Positions 2,559-37,919 of a stretch of DNA of 64,000 nt are shown one piece after another. The notes beneath the pieces are model-generated. The model worked only from the letters and a program-made list of their open reading frames with translations. It was not told the origin of the DNA and ran no database searches. The DNA is from a virus. The position numbers were made by a program, and so were the translations under genes. How positions within the stretch are numbered: the stretch's first letter is position 1; each line of letters opens with the position of its first letter. The stretch is from the UHGV virus genome UHGV-0185973; one strand, given 5' to 3'.

Positions 2559-2568
2559 GAGAAATATT

Positions 2569-3450
2569 ATGAAAACCACTATTCGAGTTCTGCTAAGTTC
2601 TAATGCTAAAGGTAGCATTCAAGAAATCTTTAATATTATCCAATTTCCGTCTGGTGAGATTGGTGGCAACTTCTCTGAAGACTTTGTAGAATTTGCTGAA
2701 AGCTTTGCTGGTAAGATTGAAAATGTCATATTTACTGTGCAGGGTTATGATAAAGATACTTTGTTTGCCTTAGCTTTAGCTAAAGAGGCAGTTGACAAGC
2801 TCATCCCTCAAGGTTCAGCTATGAAGACTGTTCTGTTCGGGTTCTTACCAAATGCCCGTTATGACCGTCACATGTTTAAAGGTGATGCAGCAGCACTCAA
2901 AGTGTTTGCCAATCTGGTGAATGCAATGGAATTTGATGCAGTATGCTCTCTGGATGTTCATAGCAATGTCGCAGAAAACCTGTTTAAGTGCTTCCATTGC
3001 ATACCTCAGAAAGAGTTTGCGGCACACTTTGCAAGTGACCCACGTATTGATTACTTGGTAGCACCAGATGCAGGTGCAGCTAAGAAGACTGAAGAGGCTG
3101 CTAAAGAGGTTGAAAAGCCTTATATTACAATGGCTAAGGTTCGTAATCTGAAAACTGGTGAAATTACCGGTATGCGAATCCTTGACGATGTAGACTTAAC
3201 TGGTAAGACTGTCATGATTCTGGATGATATCTGTGATGGTGGTCGAACCTTCGTAGAGGCTGCAAAGTATCTTCGTGAAGCTGGAGCAGAACGTGTAGAA
3301 CTCTGTGTCACTCATGGGATTTTCTCTAAAGGTGTTGAAAATCTTCTTGACAATGGTATCGACCATATCTACACTACAAACTCATTAGGTGATGCTAAAG
3401 ACCGTGGTCTGAATAAGCACTCACAAGTAACTGTAGCAAACATTGAATAA
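2569..3450 (+). CDS. ribose-phosphate pyrophosphokinase-like protein (PRPP synthetase family; possibly ADPR-PP synthetase-like)
   Basis: GAGAGA RBS 6 nt before ATG 2569; C-terminal PRTase-type nucleotide-binding motif TVMILDDICDGGRT; about 293 aa. Confidence 0.7.
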   Translation: MKTTIRVLLSSNAKGSIQEIFNIIQFPSGEIGGNFSEDFVEFAESFAGKIENVIFTVQGYDKDTLFALALAKEAVDKLIPQGSAMKTVLFGFLPNARYDRHMFKGDAAALKVFANLVNAMEFDAVCSLDVHSNVAENLFKCFHCIPQKEFAAHFASDPRIDYLVAPDAGAAKKTEEAAKEVEKPYITMAKVRNLKTGEITGMRILDDVDLTGKTVMILDDICDGGRTFVEAAKYLREAGAERVELCVTHGIFSKGVENLLDNGIDHIYTTNSLGDAKDRGLNKHSQVTVANIE

Positions 3451-6139: not shown

Positions 6140-8515
6140 ATGCGCATGGTAAATGACCACGCAGAAGTAATTAAGAGTTCAACCACGTTAGAGACTGCTC
6201 AAGCATCGATTACCATGACTCCTGAGATGTTTAGTCTTCTGAGTTCTGGTGTATACACACATAAGGAACGTGCTGTAATTCGTGAGCTTTCCTGTAATGC
6301 TGTAGATGCTCATGTAGAGGCTGGTAATTCAGATAAACCATTCAGGGTTCACTTACCAACTCGTTTTGAGCCTTACTTTGAAGTACGAGATTTTGGAACT
6401 GGTTTAACACACGATAAAGTTATGTCTCTGTATCTCAACTACGGAGAATCAACAAAGAATGATTCCAACGATTATATTGGTGCAATGGGTATCGGTTCAA
6501 AGTCACCATTTGCAATTGCTCAATCATTTACTGTGTCAAGCTATGTAGATGGTGTTGTAAACAAATACTCTGTATATCTGGAAAATGGTATTCCAAGGGT
6601 TACTAAACTGACAACTAACCCTACTGTTGAACCAAACGGTTTAGCTGTACGTGTGGCAGTTTCTGACCAACGTATCAGTAAGTTTGCAGATGAAGCAAGT
6701 AACGTGTTCTCTTACTTCAAAGTAAAACCAGAGTGTAACATTGAGTATCGTGATATCCTTGCAGAGATGACTTCAATCTCTCGTGAAGCAAATGTCTACG
6801 ATGCTATGAAGTACAAAGAGAACTGGCGTTCAAGCAATAACGTAGTTAACTTTAATGTGGTCATGGGTAATATTGCATACCCTGTTGATGTACCAACTTT
6901 GTTCGAAGGTAACTATGCAGATGCTGTTCCACAGTTCTTCAGGAATGCAGTAGACCTTGTTAACATCTATATGCCAATCGGTTCAGTAGCTATTGCTGCA
7001 TCTCGTGAAGCACTACAGATGAATGAGGCAACTAAGCAGAAGATTATTGATGCTGTTAACCGTATCACAGAGACTATTGTTGCAGATGTTATCAAGGCTG
7101 TTGCTGATAAGCCAACTTTGCTTGATGCTGCACAAGCTTACAGTGACATGTTTAAAGATTCTCGTGAAATCTTCATGCACGTTCAAAACAAGCTTGAGTG
7201 GAATGGTCAGAACTTAGCAGAACTTGACAGAAAACTTAACAGTATTCGTCGTGGTCAGTTAACTGAAGCAGATGGTTCACCGTCATTTATTAAGAATGAT
7301 GCAGGTGATTTCATGCTTGACAAAGATGGTAATAAGATTCCTAACATTGGGAACCTGTATGAACCAGTAGCTTATTATAAGTTTAGTAGTCTTGAGAACC
7401 GTATTCGTGCAACTTCAGCCACTTATACACAAGACTCTTCAATGTTCAATATCTTCAGTGGTATGAGCAAAGATAAGCTGTATAACTACATGTTTATGAT
7501 TAATGACCGTCGAAACAAAAACGGTACTGAGAAGACAACTGGTAAGAATCAGATTATCCGTGGAGCTTGCCGTGACCGTGAACTTGAAGAACCTATGTTC
7601 CGTCGCTACAATGGTATAGTTTTCATGTTTAGTTCTGAAGAACAATTGGATGACTTTATCAAGCTTCATATGCTGGATAAGAGCTTGCTTAATATTGTCA
7701 CAATGTCTTCTAAAGAGCACCACTATGTTAAGCGTACCGTTGTACGTGGTGTTGTTAAGCTGTATAAAGCATTCATGGACAGTACACCACGGATTGCCTA
7801 TACAGAAGTGAAAGAGAACTTTGATGATATTGAAGAACCACAATATTACATCAAGGCACAAAGTGACACTGTTGTGGGTGATATCTTCAGTTGTTCCCCA
7901 GAGACAGCAGCAAAACTGACTGCTCAACTTATTGGACAACCTGTGTATGTCTTCCGTAAGGCTAACTGGAAGAAAGTACCTGAAGATTGGATTGAAATCA
8001 GTGACCAAGTTTTCAAAGATTTTATTGACAGTAGCCATTGGGTTGATTACAATCGCTACCTCACTCACCAGTACATGAGTGGAAGTAAAGGCACTAGCAT
8101 TCTTGACTGTAATGTTATCTCAAGAAACTTCACCTTTAAGGATAAGAAGATTTCTAAAGGCTACGTGTACAGCAAAGACTTTGAGAAGGTAATGTTCCTT
8201 GAAGGGAATGAAGAAGCAATTGAGGATGTATTCGGTCGAATCGCCTACACTGCTGCACCTATTGCTTACATGTTTGAGACAAGTGTTTTAAATGACATTC
8301 GTCGTCACACAAAGAGCGGAAGCAAAATTAACAAGAGTCTGAAGAAAGCTAAGAACCATATGGAGAAGAAACTTGAAGTTTATTTCTCTAAAAGAAAGTC
8401 AAAAAACTTCTTGCTTTCACACCTTGATTGGAATAAAGTAAGCCCTGTTGAAGTGAGTAACTTCTTAGGTCACCAAGTCCGGTCAATCCCTTCAGATACA
8501 ACTGCTTGGGACTAA
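6140..8515 (+). CDS. rIIA: rIIA protein
   Basis: 791-aa ORF; N-terminal ATPase-like region (ELSCNAVDAH...GTGLTHDKV...GAMGIGSKSPF); immediately upstream of a clear rIIB homologue, the conserved rIIA-rIIB arrangement. Confidence 0.75.
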   Translation: MRMVNDHAEVIKSSTTLETAQASITMTPEMFSLLSSGVYTHKERAVIRELSCNAVDAHVEAGNSDKPFRVHLPTRFEPYFEVRDFGTGLTHDKVMSLYLNYGESTKNDSNDYIGAMGIGSKSPFAIAQSFTVSSYVDGVVNKYSVYLENGIPRVTKLTTNPTVEPNGLAVRVAVSDQRISKFADEASNVFSYFKVKPECNIEYRDILAEMTSISREANVYDAMKYKENWRSSNNVVNFNVVMGNIAYPVDVPTLFEGNYADAVPQFFRNAVDLVNIYMPIGSVAIAASREALQMNEATKQKIIDAVNRITETIVADVIKAVADKPTLLDAAQAYSDMFKDSREIFMHVQNKLEWNGQNLAELDRKLNSIRRGQLTEADGSPSFIKNDAGDFMLDKDGNKIPNIGNLYEPVAYYKFSSLENRIRATSATYTQDSSMFNIFSGMSKDKLYNYMFMINDRRNKNGTEKTTGKNQIIRGACRDRELEEPMFRRYNGIVFMFSSEEQLDDFIKLHMLDKSLLNIVTMSSKEHHYVKRTVVRGVVKLYKAFMDSTPRIAYTEVKENFDDIEEPQYYIKAQSDTVVGDIFSCSPETAAKLTAQLIGQPVYVFRKANWKKVPEDWIEISDQVFKDFIDSSHWVDYNRYLTHQYMSGSKGTSILDCNVISRNFTFKDKKISKGYVYSKDFEKVMFLEGNEEAIEDVFGRIAYTAAPIAYMFETSVLNDIRRHTKSGSKINKSLKKAKNHMEKKLEVYFSKRKSKNFLLSHLDWNKVSPVEVSNFLGHQVRSIPSDTTAWD

Positions 8516-11563: not shown

Positions 11564-12448
11564 ATGAAGCCAATGTTCAAATATCTTGGTGGTAAAACAA
11601 GAATACTAAGAGAGTATGAGCGTTTAAATGTTTTTCCAAGCCACTGTAAAAACTTCTATGATTTGTTTTCAGGTGGAGGTTCAGTCGCTATTTGGGCTTA
11701 TAACAGATACCCAGAAGCAAAAATATTTATTAATGAGATAAACAAACACATTATAGGTCTTTACACAACTTTCAGAAATGACTATGAAAACTTCATGGAA
11801 GAATTTGAGTGCTTGTCAAAGAGGTACTTAGCATTACCTATGCAGGAAGAATATGCTGTGAAAGGTCAGCGACATAAACGTTTACGCTATAAAATGTATT
11901 ACAGTGTAAGGGAGGAACTCCTTTCACTTGGTGAAACAGGTATATATGACTATAGGTACTATGCAAGACAATTTTTCCTTCAAAAACTAAGTTTTGGTGG
12001 TGTATGGCAGACCACTAAAGAAATGAAAGGTCACTACGCAACACCTTGTGGGTATTTGCTGGAAGAAGAGATTTTCTTTACAAAAACTAAAGAGTCACTA
12101 TCCGAGTTCTACAGTTTTATCACCGATAAAAGGGTGATACTAAGTAGTGAGCCTTATGATATGGTTGACATAAAACATGGAGAAGGTACAGTTATTTACT
12201 GTGACCCCCCATATATCAACACCAACCAGAAATATGGTGCAAAGTTTGACATTGAAATGTCTGTAAAACTATGTGAAAATATGATTTCTTGGGGAGAGTT
12301 AGGTTCTAAAGTTTTGATGTCAAACTCTCAGTGGGATGGATGGACAAACTTAATCCCTGAAAATTTTAACTTGACAGAGGTTAGCCATTCATACACAATA
12401 CATGCACAGAGAAGCAAGGGTGTTAGCGAAGTAATTATTCATAACTAA
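11564..12448 (+). CDS. dam: DNA N6-adenine methyltransferase (Dam-like)
   Basis: AAGGAG RBS; SAM-binding motif DLFSGGGSV and catalytic IYCDPPY in the order typical of Dam-type enzymes. Confidence 0.75.
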   Translation: MKPMFKYLGGKTRILREYERLNVFPSHCKNFYDLFSGGGSVAIWAYNRYPEAKIFINEINKHIIGLYTTFRNDYENFMEEFECLSKRYLALPMQEEYAVKGQRHKRLRYKMYYSVREELLSLGETGIYDYRYYARQFFLQKLSFGGVWQTTKEMKGHYATPCGYLLEEEIFFTKTKESLSEFYSFITDKRVILSSEPYDMVDIKHGEGTVIYCDPPYINTNQKYGAKFDIEMSVKLCENMISWGELGSKVLMSNSQWDGWTNLIPENFNLTEVSHSYTIHAQRSKGVSEVIIHN

Positions 12449-15519: not shown

Positions 15520-16311
15520 ATGGGTATTGTAAAAATTATCAAAGGGGATATCTTTGAAGCTTTTGACAATCAGAAGTTTGATATTATTGGTCACGGTTGC
15601 AACTGCATGAATCTTATGGGTGCAGGGATTGCAGCAACAATTGCAAAACGTTACCCAAAAGCTTATGAGACTGACCAAGAAGTCTACAACCTGTTTGGTA
15701 AAGACCACAAACCAGTAGCTTTAATGCTTGGAAATCTTAGTGTAGCGCGTTTTAAGCAGGGTCGTATTGCTAACCTATACACTCAGTTAGTTACTGGTAA
15801 AGATGCCCGTTACAATGCTTTAGAGGCTGCTTTAGAGCGACTAAACAACTACTGCAAAGTCAATCAGCTTAAGAAGGTTGGCTTACCAATGATAGGTGCA
15901 GGGATTGGTGGTCTTGATGGTATGGCTGTGCTATCTATCATTAACCAGACCATGAAGGATGTTGATGTTTACATGTACATCTATGAAGATAAGATGTTCA
16001 AGGAACTGACTAATCCTAAGTCTGGTTGGGAGAATCACAGTGAACCACAATTCTTCGATGGTGTTGCAAAGGTTGAAGAAGATGTAGTTACCCTGTGGGT
16101 GAAGCGTAAAGGGAAGGTACATAAAAGTAACCCTCCGGTTGAGAAGTATTCTCTAAGTAACGCTCTAGTTACCCACCCGTTGGCAGGGCATTGTATGAGA
16201 GGTGTAACATTTGGTGATGATGCTAATGTGTATATCCTTGCAAGCAACGACAAAGATGCTGAGGAAGCACTTTCCTGTGAAGTGATTAAGTTTGTAGAAG
16301 CACGTAACTAG
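15520..16311 (+). CDS. macrodomain protein (TARG1/DarG-like) with C-terminal extension
   Basis: N-terminus IKGDIFEA...FDIIGHGCNCMNLMGAGIAATIAKRYP matches the TARG1/OARD1 pattern (H-C-x-x-D-C-x-MGAGIA); about 100 aa of unassigned C-terminal sequence. Confidence 0.6.
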   Translation: MGIVKIIKGDIFEAFDNQKFDIIGHGCNCMNLMGAGIAATIAKRYPKAYETDQEVYNLFGKDHKPVALMLGNLSVARFKQGRIANLYTQLVTGKDARYNALEAALERLNNYCKVNQLKKVGLPMIGAGIGGLDGMAVLSIINQTMKDVDVYMYIYEDKMFKELTNPKSGWENHSEPQFFDGVAKVEEDVVTLWVKRKGKVHKSNPPVEKYSLSNALVTHPLAGHCMRGVTFGDDANVYILASNDKDAEEALSCEVIKFVEARN

Positions 16312-16383
16312 ATAGCTCTGTAGTAATACTCACAATAGCTTTAAGCCTTTCTTACTCAAGCATTCAGCAAGGTAAGGAGGGCT

Positions 16384-16565
16384 TTTTCATTTCAAAAACG
16401 TGCAGGTGTAGTGCTATAGAGAAATCTGTACAGCAATTTCTGAACTCCAAAGAGAAAAATCATTTTAGAATTGTGCAGGTCAACTCCAAAGAGCTTTTTC
16501 ATTTTCAATCTGTGCAGATGCAGTTGGACTCCAAAGGGAAAATTCATTTTCAATTTGTGCAGGTA
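16384..16565. repeat. imperfect tandem repeats, about 40-45 bp unit, 3-4 copies
   Basis: Repeated ACTCCAAAGRG ... TTTTCATTTTCAAT.TGTGCAGRT units at about 16400, 16472, 16511, 16556; they produce the spurious minus-strand ORF 16392-16703. Confidence 0.6.
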
Positions 16566-16766: not shown

Positions 16767-16819
16767 TTGCATCAACGGGGCAAGCAAGCCCCAACAATCC
16801 TAAACTGGAGAATCTAAAA

Positions 16820-17203
16820 ATGAAAAAATACTACATGCCTAAATTCATCAAGAAAGAAAACTTTCGTAATGCTCTGGAAAAATCTATGGGCGAACAATTC
16901 AAAGGAAAAATAATTGTTGTTCACGCTTACAATTTTAAGTATGATGTGAATGGAAACAAGATAAACCATTATACCGCTACAATGTTAGATGGTACACTAT
17001 CAGGAGAAAAAGCCGTCATAAATGCACTTGCTGGACGTGGAAAAACTCTCATCCGTTGCGATAAACGCCGCTATCAGGGTAGTGCTTATGGTTATGAAGA
17101 TGCAATCTATCATCTTGATAACATGGGTTACAATGTCGAAAAAGCTGGCGTATCTCAAATGATTGGCAGTGATGGCTATGTAACAATCTTTGAAATTAAC
17201 TAA
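16820..17203 (+). CDS. hypothetical protein (cassette ORF)
   Basis: Preceded by conserved CCTAAACTGGAGAATCTAAAAATG context. Confidence 0.55.
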   Translation: MKKYYMPKFIKKENFRNALEKSMGEQFKGKIIVVHAYNFKYDVNGNKINHYTATMLDGTLSGEKAVINALAGRGKTLIRCDKRRYQGSAYGYEDAIYHLDNMGYNVEKAGVSQMIGSDGYVTIFEIN

Positions 17204-17289
17204 TAAAGTACTTTACATGGGGTTTATAGTTCGATAGGATAAGCCCCAGATAAAGAACTTTATCACTAACCTAAACTGGAGTTTTAAAA

Positions 17290-17547
17290 ATGGCTACCAT
17301 TAAAAACATCGTAATTACTGCAAAATCCCGTGATGACGCTCGCGCAACTGCTAAAAAATTAAATGGTAAAGTAGTTGACAACGGAAAAAGTTCTGCTGTA
17401 AGATGGGGCGTAAAGACAGACAAGGAATTAACCTTGAAACATAGCTCTAAAAACCTGTTTAAAGGTGTACAGACTATCGGTAAAACAAATGTATTTACAA
17501 AACAAGGTTATAAAATGCACTTGGCATTAACTGACAATTTAATCTAA
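17290..17547 (+). CDS. hypothetical protein (cassette ORF)
   Basis: Preceded by full cassette 17205-17289. Confidence 0.55.
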   Translation: MATIKNIVITAKSRDDARATAKKLNGKVVDNGKSSAVRWGVKTDKELTLKHSSKNLFKGVQTIGKTNVFTKQGYKMHLALTDNLI

Positions 17548-17638
17548 AAAGTACTTTACATGGGGTTTATAAATTGCTAGTATAAGCCCCAGATAAAGAG
17601 CTTTACCACTAAACAATCCTAAACTGGAGAATCTAAAA

Positions 17639-18151
17639 ATGAAATTTGTTGAAAGTACCTTTGAAGTTCAAAAAGAAAAATTCACCATTATCTATGAGGC
17701 AATGAATATTTGTGAGCCTTCCCATTGTGTGGATAACTGGCAATTTACTGATGAGCATAAAGGCGGGGTTACAATCAAAGTTAAGAATGCAGAACGTAAC
17801 AGCTACAAATATGCAATTCCCACACATTACCCGCTTTCACAACTTACCAGTGACTACGCAAAACAGGGAAGGGATAACCCGTCATTGGAAGCTTACAAGA
17901 GCTTACAGGATGAGCTAGAAAGGGATTTACAGGCTAATAACTACATCTTGTATGCCTCAGTAGTTGACGCTGAAGGCAACACGGTTTTAAATAGTTTTTC
18001 CCTTGCGTATGGTTTCGATTGGTGCTATCTTGACGGGGAAGATTTAGATTCACGCTTAAAAGAGGAAGTCAGTAATTCAGGTGCTGAAGAGGAAGTTTTA
18101 GAGCGTTTGGAAGATTTAAAAGACAGTGTGATGAATATCTTTAACATTTAA
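17639..18151 (+). CDS. hypothetical protein (cassette ORF)
   Basis: Preceded by full cassette 17548-17638. Confidence 0.55.
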   Translation: MKFVESTFEVQKEKFTIIYEAMNICEPSHCVDNWQFTDEHKGGVTIKVKNAERNSYKYAIPTHYPLSQLTSDYAKQGRDNPSLEAYKSLQDELERDLQANNYILYASVVDAEGNTVLNSFSLAYGFDWCYLDGEDLDSRLKEEVSNSGAEEEVLERLEDLKDSVMNIFNI

Positions 18152-18235
18152 AAGTACTTTACATGGGGTTATCAGGCTGATAAGATAGCCCCAGATAAAG
18201 AGCTTTACCCAATAACCTAAACTGGAGATTCTAAA

Positions 18236-18532
18236 ATGTTTATCGCTGCAAATGTACGTTCCAAATTGAGCAAGCTTTTACAAGATATCAAATTTGTAGA
18301 ATCTATGCGCCGCACTCATGAAGTAACGGAGTGGTATCATGGGAAAATAAATGGTAAAGAAGTTGTTATTTGTATTTGGAATTTTTGTAAAGAATACAAA
18401 AAGCCGTTGCTTCAGGTGGATATCTATGATAATGCAAATAAAAATTCTGTTAAGTCTACAAGGGATATGATAGATTCTTTTGAGATTAGCCACACTGGCA
18501 GACTATTTCACAAAGGAAAATCATCATGCTAA
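18236..18532 (+). CDS. hypothetical protein (cassette ORF)
   Basis: Preceded by cassette 18152-18235. Confidence 0.55.
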   Translation: MFIAANVRSKLSKLLQDIKFVESMRRTHEVTEWYHGKINGKEVVICIWNFCKEYKKPLLQVDIYDNANKNSVKSTRDMIDSFEISHTGRLFHKGKSSC

Positions 18533-18849
18533 TTTCTGGAGTTGCCTTACTCATTGCTATTTTAGCACTGTATAAATCATGTAAAGCACATCATGCGGCA
18601 AGTGATGCAATCACAAGACAAATCAATAATAAACTTGTGACGTCCTTTCTAGAGCGTTTAAACGTGGAACAACTGAAGCGCTTAGAGATGGGCTTCAGAT
18701 TCAAGGCTGATACGTATCAGGTTAGCGACATTCTAAGCGGTGATTTTCAATTGATTGATGATTATAACGCTTTATTAAATGCTTTAAATATCAGTGACTT
18801 GAAAGATTATCATGCTGTTATTGTTCACGAAATAAGCAAACGAAAATAA
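18526..18849 (+). CDS. hypothetical membrane protein
   Basis: N-terminal TM segment MLISGVALLIAILALY; start overlaps upstream ORF. Confidence 0.45.
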   Translation: MLISGVALLIAILALYKSCKAHHAASDAITRQINNKLVTSFLERLNVEQLKRLEMGFRFKADTYQVSDILSGDFQLIDDYNALLNALNISDLKDYHAVIVHEISKRK

Positions 18850-18942
18850 ATTACTAAAAAGGGCTTGCAACTGATAGCAAAAACAAGTAAATTACTAATC
18901 AGACGGGCAAACAAGCCCACTTCCTAAACTGGAGAATCTAAA

Positions 18943-19215
18943 ATGTATACTACCAACAATAGCCGAACTTTAAATGTAACTTTAAAGCACTATGTAGAGG
19001 GTGTATTAAACTTTGAAGACTTGCAAGCAGAACAGCACTTGTTAGGTTGGCAAGTAGCAGGATTACAAAAAACTGCCACCGGATATGGGAAGAAAATCCC
19101 TACATCGTGGAAAGTGCGCTATTTAGGCAAGTTACGTAGAATTTATCAAGATGTTTATAGCAATAGTGGTGTAAGTTACATTATTGTTAACGGTAAGAAG
19201 TTGTATTTAATCTAA
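18943..19215 (+). CDS. hypothetical protein (cassette ORF)
   Basis: Preceded by variant cassette with the conserved RBS context. Confidence 0.5.
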   Translation: MYTTNNSRTLNVTLKHYVEGVLNFEDLQAEQHLLGWQVAGLQKTATGYGKKIPTSWKVRYLGKLRRIYQDVYSNSGVSYIIVNGKKLYLI

Positions 19216-19301
19216 TAAATTGCTTTACATGGGGTTATCAGGCTGATAAGATAGCCCCAGATAAAGAGATTTACCCAATAACCTAAACTGGAGATTCTAA
19301 A

Positions 19302-19703
19302 ATGACTGCTAATCGTGATATCGCTATTCTGAAAGCACGATTGACTGTAAATCGTATTAATTCTATCACATCCACAGCACCCGATGAGACATTGCATAAC
19401 ATTATCGGTAAAATTCAAGGTGTAATTTTAGACGTAGAAAACATCAAAAATTCACTTGCAAACGTTGCAAATGGTGCTACACTTGACGGCGCACAATATG
19501 AAATGGCTGATATGTTAGCCAAATCAAAAGTAATGAATAAAGAACTTGATTTGAAAATGTTTCGATTTGCTGTTAAAGTGTGGCTAGCTATTGAGTTCGA
19601 TGCTAATTTTGCAATTGCTGATTTCTTTGCTACATGGTTACAACGTAACCTGTCAAAACAAGACTTTGAAGATATCTGCGACACAATTTACGCAGAACTT
19701 TAA
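19302..19703 (+). CDS. hypothetical protein (cassette ORF)
   Basis: Preceded by cassette 19216-19301. Confidence 0.55.
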   Translation: MTANRDIAILKARLTVNRINSITSTAPDETLHNIIGKIQGVILDVENIKNSLANVANGATLDGAQYEMADMLAKSKVMNKELDLKMFRFAVKVWLAIEFDANFAIADFFATWLQRNLSKQDFEDICDTIYAEL

Positions 19704-19806
19704 AAAACGTTTGACACTAATTTTTAGATAGATTAAAGTACTAATCAGACGGGTATGCAATAACCTCCCCAGTAAGTGAAGTCCTTAAACTAGGAGATTC
19801 TAAAAA

Positions 19807-20010
19807 ATGGCTATTATTAACGGCTTAACCATCGAAAAAACACACATCAAAGACATTAAAGTTGGGGATACAGTTCTTTTTCACGGCGTAGAAAAAACTG
19901 TCACCGCAAAAGATATCAAAGAAGATTCTTTCATGGGTGTGACTCTATTCGGCGACTCTTATCGCTTAGGATACCTTGCAGTTTTAAAAGTTATCAAAAA
20001 TAACCGATAA
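19807..20010 (+). CDS. hypothetical protein (cassette ORF)
   Basis: Preceded by variant cassette (CTTAAACTAGGAGATTCTAAAAAATG). Confidence 0.5.
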   Translation: MAIINGLTIEKTHIKDIKVGDTVLFHGVEKTVTAKDIKEDSFMGVTLFGDSYRLGYLAVLKVIKNNR

Positions 20011-20096
20011 AGTACTTTACAGGGGGCTTAAAAGTTGATACCTTAAGCCCCAGATAAAGAGCTTTACCAAATCAATCCTAAACTGGAGATTCTAAA

Positions 20097-20654
20097 ATGA
20101 AATGCTTTCACGGTACTACTCAAGAAAACTTTTTAAACCTCATCAATGGCGGCGAAAAACCTACAGGTGCTTGGAATTGCTCTGATATGGATGGTTATTT
20201 TTACGTATACCCTGTCAGTAAGTTCTGCGACGTAGAAGAGATGGACGAAGAACAAATCACAAATGAAGGGTTGCGCAATGCTCTTGATAGTGCTACAATC
20301 ACAGCAGCTATCCAAATGAAAACTCAAAATATTGTTATCTTAGAACTTGAAATTCCAGAAGATGAGTTACAAGATGATTGGTCTTGTGAGAATATGAGTG
20401 ACATCGCAAGCTTTACAGAGCACTTTGATAAAGATTGGGTTAAAAAGGTTTATACAACTGAATTCAATGCAATGTATTCACCGTTTTTTGTTCCTAACTT
20501 ACAAAATCGTAATTTGGGATATATTGATGAAAAGCTTGAAGAGGTTGCAACATTCATCCAAAATGCCGATGATAGCTCAATCATCTATTGCAATATGCTG
20601 GACGCAATGCAAGAAAGCTTAACAGAAAGCGTTTTAAGCGACGTTTTAGCGTAA
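20097..20654 (+). CDS. putative ADP-ribosyltransferase (PARP-like H-Y-E class), cassette ORF
   Basis: N-terminus FHGTTQENFLNLINGG parallels the PARP signature WHGSRTTNFAGILSQG; downstream DGYFYVYPVSKF parallels GKGIYFADMVSKS; acidic ILELEIPEDE segment follows. Motif-level call only. Confidence 0.35.
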   Translation: MKCFHGTTQENFLNLINGGEKPTGAWNCSDMDGYFYVYPVSKFCDVEEMDEEQITNEGLRNALDSATITAAIQMKTQNIVILELEIPEDELQDDWSCENMSDIASFTEHFDKDWVKKVYTTEFNAMYSPFFVPNLQNRNLGYIDEKLEEVATFIQNADDSSIIYCNMLDAMQESLTESVLSDVLA

Positions 20655-20717
20655 ACCATACAATCACACTAACGACATTCAAAAGCCCCGCATAGGGGCT
20701 TACAAGGGGATTAAATC

Positions 20718-20954
20718 ATGTTAACAACAATCTATCTCATGCTTGCCGTTTGCTCTGGTGCAAATAATTGTCATTATGGCATTATGGAATCTTTCGAAGG
20801 CACTAAACAAAATGCAGTAGAGGCTTGCAATATTGCTAGACAGGACTACCCGAAATCGTCTATAATGGACTGTTATGTCTCACAAGGTGAAGACGAAAGC
20901 ACAGAATACTACGAAAACGTTAATGAAGATGAATTTTTAGAGATTTACAAATAA
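20718..20954 (+). CDS. hypothetical small secreted protein or lipoprotein
   Basis: N-terminus MLTTIYLMLAVCSG resembles a signal peptide with lipobox-like LAVC. Confidence 0.4.
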   Translation: MLTTIYLMLAVCSGANNCHYGIMESFEGTKQNAVEACNIARQDYPKSSIMDCYVSQGEDESTEYYENVNEDEFLEIYK

Positions 20955-21030
20955 AGTACTTTACATGGGGCTTAAAAGCTTGATACCATAAGCCCCAGAT
21001 AAAGAGCTTTCCTAAACTGGAGTTTTCACA

Positions 21031-21177
21031 ATGTCAAATATAGTTGAAATGGTTTTTAATAATCCGGTATTCTCAGAGATGATTTTCTCGTTTATCATGA
21101 TGTTACTTGTTAAAACCATGAAAAAAGCCGAAAAATTACACTCAAAGAAAAAAGCTATTGCAAACCGTTTTAAGTAA
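21031..21177 (+). CDS. small membrane protein (48 aa), not in ORF track
   Basis: Preceded by cassette 20955-21030; product has hydrophobic core MIFSFIMMLLV and basic C-terminus. Confidence 0.35.
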   Translation: MSNIVEMVFNNPVFSEMIFSFIMMLLVKTMKKAEKLHSKKKAIANRFK

Positions 21178-21224
21178 AGATATAGTATCAATCAAGCCCA
21201 CTTCCTAAACTGGAGAATCTAAAA

Positions 21225-21566
21225 ATGGCATACGTAACAATTATCACTGATAAAGAAAACTCTTCTTGGTCCACACAAGTAAGCGATAAAATGTCGCCTA
21301 TGCAATGCCTCAAATACTTTGAGCAATGGAACAGGGGGGAAGATGTAAGCCCTTTCCAAGTAATGCAGGTTGTACATGTTGACAATGACGGCAACAAAAC
21401 TACCCTTAACACTGAATACTATGCTACACGTTTTGAGACTCGCAAAGAAGCTATGCGGGAACTAAGAGAAAAGGGCTATAGTCACATTGCCGCTTTGATT
21501 TGGTCTGATTTGCTTAAAAAACAAGCATTAACCTACGTCAAGCCTGAAAAAATCTTTATAAACTAA
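21225..21566 (+). CDS. hypothetical protein (cassette ORF)
   Basis: Preceded by conserved RBS context. Confidence 0.5.
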   Translation: MAYVTIITDKENSSWSTQVSDKMSPMQCLKYFEQWNRGEDVSPFQVMQVVHVDNDGNKTTLNTEYYATRFETRKEAMRELREKGYSHIAALIWSDLLKKQALTYVKPEKIFIN

Positions 21567-21598
21567 TCAACAACTTACAAAATTCTTTGAAAAAACTG

Positions 21599-21627
21599 TT
21601 GACATTGCCCCTTGACAATAGTACATT
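21599..21627 (+). promoter_or_regulatory. sigma70-like promoter (TTGACA-N17-TACATT)
   Basis: TTGACA 21599-21604; second TTGACA 21612-21617; weaker -10. Confidence 0.35.
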
Positions 21628-21788
21628 TGTTCGAGGGGGTTTATCTAAAGGGATTCACTTAAAAGATTCTTTATAGATAAGCGAAAAAGTACTTGCAATC
21701 AGATTTCAAAACAAGTAAATTACTAAGCAACGGGGAGGGGATGACCTTCCCCACTAAGTAAAGTCCTTAAACTAGGAGATTCTAAAAA

Positions 21789-22037
21789 ATGTATACTAAA
21801 ACACAACTCAAAAGCATGGTAAACAGTGGTTTAATGAATGATGTTTATAAGGATTGCAGACGTTACGGGGAAATAAGAGAGATAATTGATTATGAGTATA
21901 CTCACACAATAAATTTCAAAACTAATGAAAAACGGACTGACTTTATAACTGTAGTGATTATTGAATACAAAAATTTATTGTGGACTTTTGAGCTGGTGAA
22001 AGGTGAGTGTATAGAAATCGAATACAAGGCCGCTTAA
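21789..22037 (+). CDS. hypothetical protein (cassette ORF)
   Basis: Preceded by variant cassette; last gene of the rightward block. Confidence 0.5.
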   Translation: MYTKTQLKSMVNSGLMNDVYKDCRRYGEIREIIDYEYTHTINFKTNEKRTDFITVVIIEYKNLLWTFELVKGECIEIEYKAA

Positions 22038-22091
22038 AAGTACTTTATAGGGGGATTAAAAGCTGACACCTTAAGCCCCCAAACACCTTTA

Positions 22092-22127
22092 CAGCCCCTT
22101 TTGTCTCTCTCATAGGGGCTTTTTTTA
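22092..22127 (+). terminator. rho-independent terminator
   Basis: AGCCCCT ... AGGGGCT stem followed by TTTTTTT. Confidence 0.65.
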
Positions 22128-22596
22128 CGTCTATGTAATAGCCCCTCTCAAATGCTTATATAAACCCTTCCCCTGTCCTTTCCAGAATCTTACAAGACCT
22201 TAAAAAGCAATAACTCTATAGCTTACTCTATAACCTCTTATCAAATCAACTTAAATATAAGCCCATAACCCGAAAGGGAAGGGCAATCCCTTAAACGCTC
22301 TATAACGCTCTATAACGGCTTATCAACTCAACTTAACCAATCATATTAACCCACTCTTAAAAGCCCTCTATAGAGCTTCATAGACCCTTAAAAGAATCTT
22401 ATAAGGGGTGTAAGCTTTATCATCTCGTTAGTATCTTGTGAATAGTTAAACAGGGGGCTTGTTATTAGCTTAAAAGTATGTTATAGGGGCTTAAAAGTAG
22501 CTATAAAGTTACGTAAAAGTATCGTAAATGCTAGCCCCCTTAACATTTCTTTAACAATTTCTTAACAATCCCTACATAGTTATGCTTATTAGAGAC

Positions 22597-23110
22597 TTGT
22601 TAGCACCTTGTTAAATCTCTGTTAAGACTATGTTACAACCTTGTTAGATTCTTTGGAGTCCCTATATAAGCCCCTGTAAAGGGCTATAAAGAGCTATACA
22701 GTCAGTTGGGCTATAGTTACTATGGAGAACCTTAGAAATGGCTGTATAGAGCTATACAGGGCTTTTAAGAGGGCTTTTAAGAGAATCACTGAGAAAGATA
22801 GGGAACTATAGACCAAGAGATAGTGACATGTTAACAGCTTGTTAAAAAGGTTAAACACTTGTTAGGAACTTGTTAATAATCTTAACAAAATAACTCTTAA
22901 CATTTAACTACTCAACTCTTGTTAGCAATCTGTTAAGACTCTGTAAAGACTATGCAACAACTGTTAAGCACTTGTTACAATCTTGTTAGCTCTGTTAAGG
23001 GTCTATTAAGAACTCTGAAGAGATGTTAAGAGGATGTAGTAACTGTTAAGAAATTGTTAATGATATTTTAAGATTTTGCAAAGGGTATGTTACAGGGATG
23101 TTAAGGGCTA
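22597..23110. repeat. array of short degenerate repeats (core YTGTTAR) with about 10-11 bp phasing
   Basis: At least 20 copies of CTTGTTAG / CTGTTAAG / ATGTTACA, e.g. five consecutive copies 22597-22650 at 10-11 bp spacing and a dense run 22828-23110; inverted copies (TTAACA) at 22538-22570 and 22880-22905. No ORF of 60 aa or more across 22128-23870. Confidence 0.7.
22742..22759. promoter_or_regulatory. inverted repeat CTGTATAG-ag-CTATACAG (operator-like)
   Basis: Perfect 8-bp arms; same arms form the palindrome in the rIIA promoter (6086-6105); CTATACAG also at 22694, 23514 and 38040. Confidence 0.4.
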
Positions 23111-34487: not shown

Positions 34488-34835
34488 ATGAAGACTTGTA
34501 TTAGGTGCAAACTTAGCAAGGATGAAAATGATTTCTACATGAAAGATGGTAGGAGAACTCATTCATACTGTAAAAAGTGTGTTAATGAGCAAACCATAGA
34601 AAGACAAAGAGCACTTAAACTTTCAGCTGTTGAGTACAAAGGTGGGGTTTGTCATGATTGTGGTAAAAGGTATCATCCAGCAGTGTATGACTTCCATCAT
34701 TTGAATCCTTCAGAGAAAGATTTTAACATTGGTCATAGAAAAAGTCTTAAGTTCTCTCAGGAGCTAAAGAACGAACTTGACAAATGTGTTTTGCTATGTT
34801 CAAATTGCCATAGGGTAAGACATGCAAAGTATTAG
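34488..34835 (+). CDS. HNH homing endonuclease
   Basis: CxxC zinc pairs (CIRC, CKKC, CHDC) and HNH core DFHHLNPSEKDFNIGHRK...LLCSNCHRVRH. Track ORF starts at 34443 inside the tRNA-like gene; ATG 34488 chosen. Confidence 0.75.
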   Translation: MKTCIRCKLSKDENDFYMKDGRRTHSYCKKCVNEQTIERQRALKLSAVEYKGGVCHDCGKRYHPAVYDFHHLNPSEKDFNIGHRKSLKFSQELKNELDKCVLLCSNCHRVRHAKY

Positions 34836-34972
34836 TTAGCAGATTGCTTAGACGACCTTAACGGGTCTCCTGTAAGGAGGTGGTCTGTATCTCATGTTTC
34901 CAGAGCATGTAAAAATATTCTGAGAAGGGGCTTTACAGTGTTGTGATAATACGGTAAGCTTCGAATTATAAT

Positions 34973-35055
34973 ATGGGACGATGTTAAGACTCTAAGGCAT
35001 GAGCAACGGCTTCCAACACCGTTTCAAAGGGGTTCAACTCCTCCGTCCCATGCCA
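34973..35055 (+). tRNA. atypical tRNA-like gene (anticodon CCA, Trp-like; oversized D region)
   Basis: Perfect acceptor ATGGGAC/GTCCCAT, loop TTCCAAC, T-loop TTCAACT, CCA; 26 nt between acceptor and anticodon stem (normal about 19). Confidence 0.45.
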
Positions 35056-35068
35056 AAGTCTTATTAGG

Positions 35069-35158
35069 GGTAGGTAGCGGCTAATGGTAGCCAAACTGTC
35101 TTGAAAACAGTTGCCACTGTAGAGATACGGTGAGGGTTCGACTCCTTTACTTACCGCC
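35069..35158 (+). tRNA. tRNA-Ser (anticodon TGA), class II
   Basis: Anticodon arm ACTGT-CTTGAAA-ACAGT, long variable arm, acceptor GGTAGGT/ACTTACC. Confidence 0.7.
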
Positions 35159-35406
35159 TAATAAGATTTAAAGCCGCGCTTCGTTCGGATGTTGCGTTAG
35201 GTTTCACTTCGTGTATTGTCGTACACGATGTTGAGAAAGCACCTAGTAGGTGTCACGGAGAAGAGATAGCATCAAGCTCTCCAAAGGTTCTAGTCACCGG
35301 ATTAAACAAGACTATGCAAAGACTGATTAGGTCTTTTTAGATAACTTCTGAGGCAAACTATACCATTGTTGCTTTGGGTCTTGGAAGTTCTCTACAAAGA
35401 TTTAAT

Positions 35407-35483
35407 GCACCTATAGCCCAATTGGAAGAGGCAGCAGACTTAGAATCTGTTCAGTGTGAGTTCGACTCTCTCTAGGTGTACCA
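35407..35483 (+). tRNA. class I tRNA with anticodon TAG (Leu codon CUA; isotype uncertain)
   Basis: Anticodon arm GCAGA-CTTAGAA-TCTGT, 5-nt variable loop, D-loop AATTGGAAGA, discriminator A, CCA. Confidence 0.6.
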
Positions 35484-35490
35484 AATTAAT

Positions 35491-35566
35491 GCAGGTGTAG
35501 CAAAATGGTTATGCGGCTGACTCTTAATCAGTAAGACGATGGGTTCAATTCCCTCCACCTGTACCA
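35491..35566 (+). tRNA. tRNA-Lys (anticodon CTT)
   Basis: Anticodon arm GCTGA-CTCTTAA-TCAGT; T-arm nearly identical to the TTT Lys tRNA; CCA. Confidence 0.65.
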
Positions 35567-35572
35567 AACATT

Positions 35573-35648
35573 GGGGATGTAGTTTACATGGTTAAAACAT
35601 AAGTTTTGCAAACTTAAGTACAGGGTTCAATTCCATGCTTCTCCACCA
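35573..35648 (+). tRNA. tRNA-Ala (anticodon TGC)
   Basis: Anticodon arm TAAGT-TTTGCAA-ACTTA, T-loop TTCAATT, CCA. Confidence 0.75.
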
Positions 35649-35654
35649 ATTAGT

Positions 35655-35729
35655 GCATCCATAGTTTAAACGGGAAAATTACAGTCTTCCAAACTGAGGT
35701 TGAGGGTTCGATTCCCTCTGGATGCTCCA
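35655..35729 (+). tRNA. tRNA-Gly (anticodon TCC)
   Basis: Loop CTTCCAA, T-arm GAGGGTTCGATTCCCTC, acceptor GCATCCA/TGGATGC, CCA. Confidence 0.75.
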
Positions 35730-35735
35730 ATTCAT

Positions 35736-35811
35736 GCTCCTATCGTATAACTGGCTATTACGGTTGTCTTGTAAGCAACTTATCAGGGTTCGAATCCTTG
35801 TGGGAGCACCA
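35736..35811 (+). tRNA. tRNA-Thr (anticodon TGT)
   Basis: Anticodon arm GTTGT-CTTGTAA-GCAAC, T-arm CAGGGTTCGAATCCTTG, CCA. Confidence 0.75.
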
Positions 35812-35905
35812 ATTTGAGGTCAAGTGAAAGACCGCTTGAGTCAACTGAAGACCGTAACAAATTCCACGGAGTTGAGTTAGCGGCACAACTTCAGACCTCT
35901 TTAAA
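35812..35905 (+). ncRNA. candidate structured small RNA between tRNAs
   Basis: About 90 nt with long-range complementarity (GAGGTC 35816-35821 with GACCTC 35893-35898; CTGAAG with CTTCAG) and no ORF or tRNA fold. Confidence 0.3.
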
Positions 35906-35980
35906 GCTCGCTTAGTTTATATGGTAAAGCCCCATCCTTACAAGTTGGTGAAGAAGGTTCAAGTCCTTCAGCGAGTACCA
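35906..35980 (+). tRNA. tRNA-Val (anticodon TAC)
   Basis: Loop CTTACAA, T-arm GAAGGTTCAAGTCCTTC, acceptor GCTCGCT/AGCGAGT, CCA. Confidence 0.75.
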
Positions 35981-35981
35981 A

Positions 35982-36059
35982 GTTCCAGTATCCCAATTGG
36001 CAGAGGATGCAAGCTCAAACCTTGTATTAGTGACGGTTCGAATCCGTCTTGGAACACCA
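35982..36059 (+). tRNA. class I tRNA with anticodon CAA (Leu codon UUG; isotype uncertain)
   Basis: Anticodon arm GCAAG-CTCAAAC-CTTGT, 6-nt variable region, T-arm GACGGTTCGAATCCGTC, discriminator A, CCA. Confidence 0.6.
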
Positions 36060-36076
36060 AATTTTAGGAGATTCCT

Positions 36077-36289
36077 ATGAAGCCTTATGGTAGACACGGT
36101 AAAGTTGAAATTGCAAGTTGTGGTTGCTGTGCTTCTCACGATGGTGAAGAAGATTACTACAAGTGGCGTACAGACCATCGTAGACGCTTTCTCAGAAGAG
36201 ATAAGAAGAAAGCTAGACAGGAATCTCGAAAAGATATTGCAGAATTAGTTCAAATGGATAGAGCAGCAACCTACGAAGTTGTTAGTTAG
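36077..36289 (+). CDS. small hypothetical protein; 3' end overlaps tRNA-Arg
   Basis: AGGAG RBS 6 nt before ATG; Cys-rich N-terminus (CGCC), basic middle; last about 50 nt overlap tRNA-Arg(ACG). Confidence 0.3.
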   Translation: MKPYGRHGKVEIASCGCCASHDGEEDYYKWRTDHRRRFLRRDKKKARQESRKDIAELVQMDRAATYEVVS

Positions 36290-36312
36290 GGGTTCGAATC
36301 CCTTATTCTGCA
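36239..36312 (+). tRNA. tRNA-Arg (anticodon ACG)
   Basis: D-arm GTTCAAATGGATAGAGC, anticodon arm GCAAC-CTACGAA-GTTGT, T-arm AGGGGTTCGAATCCCTT, acceptor GCAGAAT/ATTCTGC; CCA not encoded. Confidence 0.7.
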
Positions 36313-36333
36313 CAAATTTTAGAAGGTAATTAT

Positions 36334-36561
36334 ATGCGTAAACTCATTATTGAAAGGCATAAAGATGCTGACAAGATTGAAACAACACAAGTTGGGGACA
36401 CTGACTTCATTCTTGTAGGTTGGAAATGTGACCCAATAGCAGCTATGAAGGTTGTTCATGGTTTTGCAGGAATTGAATTTAATCAAATCATATTTGAAAC
36501 GCTATTACCAGAAAATCAGGATACGTGTAATAACGCATATATCCTGACAAGAGTTCGTTAG
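36334..36561 (+). CDS. small hypothetical protein within tRNA cluster
   Basis: 75-aa ORF between tRNA genes. Confidence 0.4.
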   Translation: MRKLIIERHKDADKIETTQVGDTDFILVGWKCDPIAAMKVVHGFAGIEFNQIIFETLLPENQDTCNNAYILTRVR

Positions 36562-36635
36562 GGGATTAGTTTACAAGGTTAAAACCTCGGTCTTTGAAAT
36601 CGAAGAAGTTGGTTCAATTCCAACATCCCCCGCCA
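36560..36635 (+). tRNA. tRNA-Gln (anticodon TTG)
   Basis: Anticodon arm TCGGT-CTTTGAA-ATCGA, T-loop TTCAATT, CCA. Confidence 0.7.
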
Positions 36636-36637
36636 AT

Positions 36638-36716
36638 GCTCCATTACTCCAATTGGCAGAGAGGCCAGACTTAAAATCTGTGTTATGTATCGGTTCGAAT
36701 CCGATATGGAGTACCA
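36638..36716 (+). tRNA. class I tRNA with anticodon TAA (Leu codon UUA; isotype uncertain)
   Basis: Anticodon arm CCAGA-CTTAAAA-TCTGT (near-identical to the TAG tRNA), 7-nt variable region, T-arm ATCGGTTCGAATCCGAT, discriminator A, CCA. Confidence 0.6.
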
Positions 36717-36722
36717 AATATT

Positions 36723-36798
36723 AGCAGTGTAGCATAACTGGCAATGCTCCAGCCTCTGAAGCTGAAAGATTAAGGTTCAAATCCTTACACTGCTGCCA
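36723..36798 (+). tRNA. tRNA-Gln (anticodon CTG)
   Basis: Loop CTCTGAA, T-arm TAAGGTTCAAATCCTTA, acceptor AGCAGTG/CACTGCT, CCA. Confidence 0.7.
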
Positions 36799-36829
36799 CT
36801 TCTAAGGGTTCTTACGAGAGTCCTTAAAT

Positions 36830-36906
36830 GTGGCCTTATCATAAATGGATAATGACCCATGCTGTGAACATGGTCTATACGGGTTCGATTCCCGTAGGTC
36901 ACCCCA
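36830..36906 (+). tRNA. tRNA-His (anticodon GTG)
   Basis: Anticodon arm CCATG-CTGTGAA-CATGG, T-arm ACGGGTTCGATTCCCGT, CCA. Confidence 0.75.
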
Positions 36907-36913
36907 ATTTTAA

Positions 36914-36990
36914 TAGCTCAATTAGCTTATATGGTTAAAGCGCGTGTCTGAAAAACATGAGAACAGGGTTCAAATCCCGATGGGCTACCA
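36914..36990 (+). tRNA. tRNA-Phe (anticodon GAA)
   Basis: Anticodon arm CGTGT-CTGAAAA-ACATG, T-loop TTCAAAT, CCA; exact 5' boundary uncertain by 1-2 nt. Confidence 0.65.
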
Positions 36991-37006
36991 ACTTTATAGG
37001 TGCATA

Positions 37007-37741
37007 ATGAAAGAGATGACAGGACAAGGTAAAGAGATTTTCAATCTCCTTAAATCCGGTAACGGGTTCTCTAACCCTCTTATTACTGGTGCAGCAGTTC
37101 TTGGTGGTACAGTTGCTGCTTCTCAGTCATTAATCACTTCAATTAGTTCTGTATCAGACCCAGCTACCCAGCAAATCCTTATTGCTGCTGGCTTGACAAC
37201 TGCCTTACTAAGCAGCTTTACAACAAGCCTTGGTAGCACCACTTCAACGACAACTACTTTAACTGACTATGGACAGAAGTCTGTAGATGAGTTTTCACAG
37301 CGTATGCAGGTAGCCAAAGGATACTCTAATGTTATGGGAGCAGCGGGTGAACAAGTTGGATGTACACCGTTTAGTGGAATCATGGGAGTTGCTACTGAAT
37401 ACGGTAACAAGGCTATGGATTTGATTAACACCTCCATAGATGCCGTAAACAGCGTTCTAAGCGACTTACAGGATGCAATTGATAAAGGACTAGCAACCAT
37501 CTCTGACCTCGCTACACAAGCTGTTACAGCGATTAATGAAGGTATGGCAAAGATTACTGCCTACGCTAATGAAGTGGCTCAGATGATTGCAGACGAAGCA
37601 GCAATGATTGCAGAGTATCTAAAAACCAATATTAATGGTTTCCTTGCAAATGTTTTACCAGATTGGTTTAACGATGATTGTAAGACGGGTGTAATTGATA
37701 CAATTGCAACTCCAGAGATGAAAGAAGCTCTAAACAAATAA
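37007..37741 (+). CDS. hypothetical Ser/Thr-rich protein
   Basis: Start moved to ATG 37007 (AGGTG RBS) because track ORF 36944 begins inside tRNA-Phe. Confidence 0.45.
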   Translation: MKEMTGQGKEIFNLLKSGNGFSNPLITGAAVLGGTVAASQSLITSISSVSDPATQQILIAAGLTTALLSSFTTSLGSTTSTTTTLTDYGQKSVDEFSQRMQVAKGYSNVMGAAGEQVGCTPFSGIMGVATEYGNKAMDLINTSIDAVNSVLSDLQDAIDKGLATISDLATQAVTAINEGMAKITAYANEVAQMIADEAAMIAEYLKTNINGFLANVLPDWFNDDCKTGVIDTIATPEMKEALNK

Positions 37742-37744
37742 TTT

Positions 37745-37837
37745 GGAAGATTAACCCTAAAAGGTAAGGGAGCAGTTTGCTAAACTGCCAGTAGCTGAGA
37801 AATTGGTGTACCAGTTCAAGTCTGGTATCTTCCTCCA
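37745..37837 (+). tRNA. tRNA-Ser (anticodon GCT), class II
   Basis: Acceptor GGAAGAT/ATCTTCC, anticodon arm GCAGT-TTGCTAA-ACTGC, long variable arm, CCA. Confidence 0.75.
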
Positions 37838-37843
37838 AATTTT

Positions 37844-37919
37844 GCATTGGTGTCAGAAATGGATATGTACCTGTCTGCAAAACAGGTTTATGAGGGTTCG
37901 AGTCCCTTCCAATGCTCCA
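37844..37919 (+). tRNA. tRNA-Cys (anticodon GCA)
   Basis: Anticodon arm CCTGT-CTGCAAA-ACAGG, T-arm GAGGGTTCGAGTCCCTT, acceptor GCATTGG/CCAATGC, CCA. Confidence 0.75.

Follow-up and report, generated by a model that had tools for sequence, protein, structure and literature searches.

A conserved, never-annotated gene of Felix O1-like phages encodes a protein with a predicted ADP-ribosyltransferase fold

The ADP-ribosyltransferases (ARTs) Alt, ModA and ModB of phage T4 serve host takeover and are made early or injected, and they are the closest functional precedent for the gene described here. Tpt1, another ART-fold enzyme, combines an N-terminal RNA-binding lobe with an Arg-His-Arg-Arg catalytic tetrad. 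In Arr, which ADP-ribosylates rifamycins, residues H19, Y49 and D84 are needed for catalysis (PMC6092378). Here we analyse a 185-residue open reading frame (ORF) in the viral genome sequence UHGV-0185973, of which a stretch of 64,000 nucleotides, called the window below, was studied. The window belongs to a Felix O1-like myovirus (Ounavirinae), its closest nucleotide matches, at ~86% identity, being Salmonella phage PC79-13 and Escherichia phages SUSP2 and mistaenkt. An initial annotation had read the ORF as a PARP-like ART that works together with a macrodomain protein and genes for the supply of nicotinamide adenine dinucleotide (NAD+). Its ART fold and its His and Tyr motifs stand, while the catalytic Glu, the PARP label and the three-part circuit that it proposed do not.

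The ORF starts with an ATG preceded, 8–9 nt to its 5' side, by a GGAG ribosome-binding site, and its product matches phrog_3303 ("unknown function") over the full ORF length (E 1.7e-86). Relatives were found by tblastn in 374 phage records, 354 of them at coverage of at least 80%, and an exhaustive hidden Markov model (HMM) search of 1.84 billion representative proteins gave 328 clusters at E≤1e-3, of which 139 also reach E≤1e-10. Because of this end-to-end match, these phage records and the 328 HMM clusters, positions 20,097–20,654 are a real gene under selection and not a chance frame. The antisense ORFs inside it, of 44 and 64 residues only, are unsupported. The peptides on which the initial annotation had drawn are all present in the product, with FHGTTQENFLNLINGG at residues 4–19, DGYFYVYPVSKF at residues 32–43 and the acidic segment ILELEIPEDE at residues 81–90.

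Family members are all stand-alone proteins of about 160–240 residues, nearly all of them of 170–200, and every one is annotated as "hypothetical" only. The family is core to the Ounavirinae, where it occurs in Felixounaviruses of Escherichia, Salmonella, Shigella and Citrobacter, in Kolesnikviruses of Erwinia (33–36% identity) and in one Pectobacterium phage, and a locus search with a sub-alignment of the family likewise returned mainly Felix O1-like loci. It is also carried by Pseudomonas Pakpunaviruses (about 31% identity) and by Vibrio phages of 138–140 kb (39% identity). Two scans with exact motif variants, which highly divergent kin could escape, covered 185,579 representative genomes of bacteria and archaea and found no relative, and for this reason the family appears to be restricted to phages, mostly virulent ones. 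A profile search of an annotated set of 5.8 billion proteins found no named member and no fusion, apart from one borderline match to DUF6912. No conserved partner gene was found, the neighbours in distant contigs being unrelated small ORFans. Literature searches turned up no description of this gene or of any ART in Felixounaviruses or Pakpunaviruses. Two genome-reduction studies considered as evidence of dispensability proved to concern unrelated phages, seszw being a Skatevirus and S1 (55% GC, ~94 ORFs) not being Pakpunavirus-like. This is a never-annotated family whose placement in the ART superfamily is new; phage ARTs as a theme are already established.

The window protein is predicted to fold like an ADP-ribosyltransferase, and the predicted fold contains the split beta-sheet of the ART core. 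In the list of PDB matches, Tpt1 (9ld3) scored 7.9, heat-labile enterotoxin 7.4, ArtA and the Rhs toxin TreX 7.2 each, pertussis toxin S1 7.1 and the Rhs toxin TreTu 6.9, followed by PARP15 (5.5), DarT (5.4), Scabin (5.3), Arr (5.2), CARDS toxin (5.1) and AcrIF11 (3.8), with diphtheria toxin, exotoxin A and RES toxins further down. Foldseek against viral predicted structures returned a phage DarT at E 1.8e-3 and, lower, an Arr-like protein; against the PDB it gave no significant match. When 117 diverse members were scanned against Pfam one by one, six of the 11 sub-threshold matches were to ART families, namely four to PARP and one each to Tpt1/KptA and CARDS toxin, and in a local HMM match residues 4–23 of one homologue (P0191) pair with positions 51–70 of the PARP model. 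The top PDB sequence match of the family profile sets "yHGTtkenlknilkgg" against "FHGTAEKNFDLILKDG" of Runella Tpt1. A single weak Pfam match of one member is to Tad6, a loop-type Thoeris inhibitor. For the window protein itself, Pfam gave only UPF0223 (E 0.01), NCBIfam and PDB sequences (phmmer) gave nothing significant, and the PADLOC models of defence and anti-defence systems gave no family at E≤10.

Conservation was counted in an alignment of 117 homologues with 22–51% identity to the query. In the predicted model, strand beta1 spans residues 2–8 and ends in H5-G6-T7 (kept in 116, 115 and 104 of the 117, respectively), which corresponds to ART motif I, a His followed by Gly-Ser/Thr at the end of beta1. 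W26 (117/117) and S29 (113/117) lie in the beta1–beta2 loop, and Y36 (115/117), within the strand of residues 35–39, agrees in sequence and secondary structure with ART motif II, a Tyr on the next core strand; the initial annotation had singled out both the His motif and this Tyr segment. A long helix (51–73), a strand (77–85) and a short strand (92–93) follow, and at the start of the next loop stands D94 (117/117), the first residue of a D-x-S-C-x-N-M motif whose other members are S96 (117/117), C97 and N99 (106/117 each) and M100 (114/117). D94 is the only invariant acid and is our candidate for ART motif III. A catalytic Glu within ILELEIPEDE, as had been proposed, was rejected for lack of conservation, since only 70 of the 117 members have Glu at position 83, the others having Val or Cys, and E85, E88 and E90 vary. 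Near-invariance of H5, G6, W26, S29, Y36, D94, S96, C97, N99 and M100 at such divergence is typical of an active site, as judged from the alignment, and we propose H5-Y36-D94 as the putative catalytic triad, an H-Y-D pattern like that of Arr. The mostly helical C-terminal extension (residues 125–185) may recognise the target. Established here are thus a real and conserved gene, an ART fold in its predicted product and motif residues that are invariant across the family, which is best regarded as a new ART family, in the H-Y-[E/D/Q] branch of the superfamily.

Our preferred reading, to which we give a probability of roughly 0.55, is that the gene encodes an active NAD+-dependent mono-ADP-ribosyltransferase that is made early and modifies some host component that is conserved across the Gammaproteobacteria. 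We infer that the protein binds NAD+ and is catalytic, that it acts as a mono- and not a poly-ADP-ribosyltransferase and that its gene is expressed early; the kind of target is inferred as well. NAD+ would be bound through H5-G6-T7 at the end of beta1, together with W26, S29 and Y36, and D94 would serve as the catalytic acid, activating the ribose C1'' for transfer. A single ADP-ribose would then be placed on a host protein or nucleic acid conserved among Gammaproteobacteria, with the D-x-S-C-x-N-M loop and the C-terminal helical extension forming the acceptor site, and the modification would aid takeover of the cell or disarm a defence. In favour of this reading we count the sub-threshold matches of members to ART models, the near-invariant motif residues, the order of elements as in Arr, the setting beside NARP1, Macro and Dam methylase genes and the distribution of the family across phage groups.

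Several points weigh against this active mono-ADP-ribosyltransferase. No sequence method assigns the window protein significantly to an ART family, and the third catalytic residue would be an Asp in a loop, whereas ARTs usually have a Glu on a strand. A clustering of H5, Y36 and D94 in one pocket is presumed from sequence order and secondary structure, and literature searches yielded no target, partner gene or experimental datum for the family. The comparison with Arr also counts here. An Arr profile, built after an Arr-2 sequence had been checked against PDB 9iba (149 of 150 residues identical), was aligned with the family by hhalign in local, global and greedy modes, giving a probability of 2% and a failed global alignment. 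The greedy alignment is co-linear: the His, Tyr and catalytic Asp of Arr align with H5, Y36 and D94, respectively, the aromatic residue of SN[Y/F] falls on W26, and the DPN[V/L] Asn falls on N99. Its score of 19.0, however, compares with a mean of 19.6 for block-shuffled profiles, and 34 of the 60 shuffles reach the real score. A specific kinship to Arr is therefore unproven, its score not exceeding those of shuffled profiles, and the equivalence of D94 with Arr D84 is suggested only by an alignment at chance level.

None of the named ART families fits the protein, and "PARP-like" in particular was too specific a label. Arr shares with the family the order of its elements, an HGT at the end of beta1, a Tyr in a strand and an Asp after the next strand. 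It differs in that none of the 117 members matches its Pfam model (PF12120) and that the family has instead the long helix 51–73, D-x-S-C-x-N-M in place of DPN[V/L], and a 60-residue C-terminal helical extension; moreover, Arr is bacterial and binds rifamycin, whereas the family is found in phages only. Tpt1/KptA (PF01885) matches through its C-terminal NAD+-binding ART lobe alone, with 77 residues aligned and 13.6 bits for the Pfam PTS_2-RNA model against a threshold of 26; its N-terminal lobe and its tetrad have no counterpart in the family, which we accordingly do not place there. PARP (PF00644) has no match in the window protein and only sub-cutoff matches in four of the 117 members (E≥6e-4), and the family, much smaller, has no conserved Glu like E988 of PARP1 and none of the helical regulatory or acceptor-loop elements, so that membership in PARP was rejected as well.

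The remaining candidates fared no better. No DarT model of Pfam or NCBIfam matches the window protein, and whereas DarT and DarG are adjacent or fused, the Macro gene of the window lies about 3.8–4 kb upstream with eight ORFs between, its product scoring 53.9 bits with the DarG model against a cutoff of 250; on these grounds DarT/DarTG was rejected. The T4 enzymes, although they too come from a phage type with a Macro-domain gene (tk.4-type matches), are of the R-S-E branch, with an Arg in beta1, S-T-S and E-x-E, whereas the family has a His in beta1 and no E-x-E. Neither PHROG nor Pfam gave cross-matches to the T4 enzymes, and no STS or ExE is conserved in the family, which excludes it from the group of Alt, ModA, ModB and cholera-toxin-like ARTs. 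AcrIF11, the anti-CRISPR ADP-ribosyltransferase, shows weak structural but no sequence similarity and comes from different hosts and a different setting. DUF6912 (PF21853) is just passed by one member (P0195, at 4637–5164 of contig L008; 27.6 bits against 27) over the helix–strand–DxSCxNM region and weakly matched by another (P0170), with no match in the window protein. DUF6912 is uncharacterised and absent from the literature, and may itself be an ART-fold family so far unrecognised.

The protein could instead be an ART-fold enzyme acting on a small molecule, whether by ADP-ribosylation in the manner of Arr on rifamycins, by hydrolysis of NAD+ or by modifying or consuming an NAD+-derived immune signal; in the last case it would belong to a counter-defence of the phage that centres on NAD+. 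We consider this unlikely, if worth keeping in mind, as the family has no significant sequence relation to Arr, in the neighbourhoods inspected no member lies beside a gene for signalling or for a sponge, degradation of immune signals by an ART-fold enzyme is without precedent, and the Vibrio phage F98 carries the ART gene without NARP1 or Macro, the NAD+-related genes discussed below. The protein could also be a catalytically dead ART-fold binder, acting as a stoichiometric inhibitor of, or a decoy for, a defence protein of the host that uses NAD+, or simply binding NAD+ or ADP-ribose. Many phage counter-defence proteins are small binders, degenerate ART folds (PARP13, RCD1, SRO1 and IcmQ) appear in the PDB match list, and the usual catalytic Glu is missing; yet the H-G-T, Tyr, Asp and Ser residues are near-invariant even in divergent members, the opposite of the motif decay seen in pseudo-ARTs, and we think such a binder distinctly improbable. 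That the protein falls outside the ARTs altogether, the model having only a generic alpha/beta likeness and the HGT being a coincidence, strikes us as very improbable.

An idea compatible with the active mono-ADP-ribosyltransferase is that the ART as writer, the Macro protein as eraser and a Prs-like and a Nampt-like enzyme as NAD+ supply form one circuit, in which, for example, Macro would shield phage molecules from the phage's own ART and NARP1 would restore the NAD+ spent. The macrodomain and NAD+ genes named in the initial annotation do exist (Table 1). By their Pfam composition, Adps plus Namat, the two NAD+ genes are the known NAD+ reconstitution operon NARP1, which rebuilds NAD+ from ADP-ribose and nicotinamide and so defeats NAD+-depleting defences. 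Phage Bas63 is a Felixounavirus of the BASEL collection. The operon has been deleted experimentally in that phage (bioRxiv 10.1101/2024.02.11.579819). In favour of a circuit, all three components are encoded on one strand, in the 21 kb with which the window begins, the Macro gene lies 3–5 kb upstream of the ART gene throughout the Ounavirinae (Felixounaviruses as well as the Erwinia and Pectobacterium phages), Pakpunaviruses with the ART family also have NARP1 and Macro (these two according to the literature), and the Macro protein is of the TARG1/DarG type, a group that includes true de-ADP-ribosylases, and may have such an activity. Against it, NARP1 has a demonstrated role of its own against NAD+ depletion, including in Bas63, and phage Poa1p-like Macro proteins linked to NARP1 are ADP-ribose-1''-phosphate phosphatases that counter the aRES defence. 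Homologues of Macro (2,796 phage records) and of Namat (2,029) are far commoner than the ART family (374), and neither depends on it. The genes are not adjacent, about eight cassette ORFs standing between them, and the synteny is limited to one subfamily and may reflect common descent. The 138-kb Vibrio phage F98 (OZ195766.1), a whole genome, has a 39% identical ART member at 68802–69344 and no detectable or annotated Adps, Namat or Macro, which rules out obligatory co-occurrence of the ART with Macro and NARP1. Their co-occurrence is thus suggestive, yet confounded by common descent, and a working circuit of the three seems to us improbable. Nor would it be unprecedented for one phage to hold an ART and a macrodomain, because T4-type phages have Alt, ModA and ModB together with Macro homologues. 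The fullest form of the idea, a phage-exclusive H-Y-D ART that acts on a new type of target in a circuit with the syntenic Macro protein (for self-protection or reversal) and with NARP1 replenishing NAD+ in Ounavirinae and Pakpunavirus, is a long shot; its target would be, for instance, nucleic acid of the host or of the phage, or else a conserved factor of defence or translation.

The Macro protein also has a C-terminal extension of ~100 residues without a family match, and PHROGs label it "phosphatase". Just 3' of its gene, at 16370–16565, are three to four tandem-like repeats of 35–45 nt (…CTCCAAAGAG…TTTTCATTTTCAAT.TGTGCAG). Namat, unusually long at 605 residues, matches the 465-position NCBIfam model over residues 12–598, implying an insertion of ~130 residues. 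The genome of F98 is full of HNH endonuclease genes, which split its nrd genes.

The ART-fold gene sits in a plus-strand arm of mainly small genes at about 0.4–22 kb, taken to be the early arm for host takeover, among cassette genes that also include NARP1, the Macro gene and a Dam methylase gene. It is preceded by a ~100-nt module with a promoter-like TTTACA, a GGGGCTTAA...TTAAGCCCC hairpin and CCTAAACTGGAGATTCTAAAATG, and modules of this kind, made up in general of AAAGTACTTTACA, a GGGG(C/T)T...AGCCCC hairpin, AGATAAAGAGCTTTACC and CCTAAACTGGAGATTCTAAAATG, recur between 16.8 and 22.1 kb, each on the 5' side of one of about nine small ORFs in a row (repeat families D1–D9), in agreement with the description of a cassette ORF in the initial annotation. 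Sigma-70-like promoters with an extended -10 are predicted in several copies, the hairpin overlapping the spacer and the -10. On the copy before the ART-fold gene no promoter was called, and its -10 (TACCTT) is weak. Promoter-early-stem-loop cassettes have been described in T4-type phages, and the layout of the modules recalls them; in Felix O1-like phages they may promote the reshuffling of genes as modules.

Table 1. Positions of the ART-fold gene, its motifs and related features in the window.
Feature	Position	Strand	Description
ORF, 185 aa plus stop	20097..20654	+	Predicted ART-fold stand-alone protein, phrog_3303 member
Codons H5-G6-T7-T8	20109..20120	+	ART motif I, end of beta1; predicted contact to NAD+ ribose/nicotinamide (putative role)
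Codons W26...S29...Y36	20172..20204	+	Candidate ART motif II (putative role)
Codons I81-E90 (ILELEIPEDE)	20337..20366	+	Strand beta3 and turn; not conserved as acidic
Codons D93-D94-W95-S96-C97-E98-N99-M100	20373..20396	+	Most conserved motif of the family; D94 candidate catalytic acid (putative role)
C-terminal extension, residues 125-185	20469..20651	+	Mostly helical, outside the ART core, moderately conserved
Intergenic cassette module	about 19997-20100	+	TTTACA (-35-like), hairpin GGGGCTTAA...TTAAGCCCC, then AGATAAAGAGCTTTACC, CCTAAACTGGAGATTCTAAA bearing the ribosome-binding site
Module copies (examples)	17193-17292, 17536-17641, 18140-18239, 19205-19305, 20945-21034, 22029-22099		Within 16790-22100
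GC-rich hairpin GCCCCGCATAGGGGC	20685..20702	+	Between the ART-fold ORF and the next ORF (20718)
Macro-domain protein	15520..16311	+	TARG1/OARD1-Poa1p-DarG group
Prs-like protein (Adps), 299 aa, TTG start	2551-3450	+	NARP1 pair
Nampt-like protein (Namat), 605 aa	3497-5314	+	NARP1 pair

Other parts of the window deserve mention. In the early arm near NARP1, a gene at 6140–8515 encodes a 791-residue protein with an N-terminal HATPase_c_3 domain (GHKL/MORC-type ATPase) and an otherwise unannotated sequence; a 209-residue antisense ORF inside it (7439–8068) is probably spurious. The same arm holds, at 11564–12448, a D12-class N6-adenine (Dam-like) DNA methyltransferase gene, probably for anti-restriction. 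Between the end of the plus-strand cassette arm (~22.0 kb) and the start of the minus-strand genes (~24.3 kb), a gene-poor stretch at 22585–23060 carries densely packed arrays in which CTTGTTA[A/G]nnn recurs with an 11-nt period; these iteron-like arrays might serve as an origin of replication or as binding sites of a regulator. A cluster of 23 tRNA genes at 32625–37919, typical of Felix O1-like phages, includes two each for Met, Lys, Gln and Ser and three for Leu.

Felix O1-like phages and Pakpunaviruses are widely used for typing and therapy, and their early genes are mostly unannotated ORFans. The present analysis gives a predicted enzyme fold and a mutable candidate site (H5, Y36 and D94) to a "hypothetical" gene that is near-universal in these phages, a useful annotation of moderate interest rather than a surprise. 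Should the protein prove inactive, it would be of interest as a pseudo-ART binder, and either outcome would be useful yet leave current understanding standing because phage ARTs are an established theme. If it is active, it would represent an H-Y-type ART family in virulent phages, beside the R-S-E enzymes of T4 and AcrIF11, and its gene would lie in genomes whose counteraction of NAD+-depleting immunity has already been demonstrated. H5, Y36 and D94 offer a testable handle on how these phages may take over or disarm their Gammaproteobacterial hosts.

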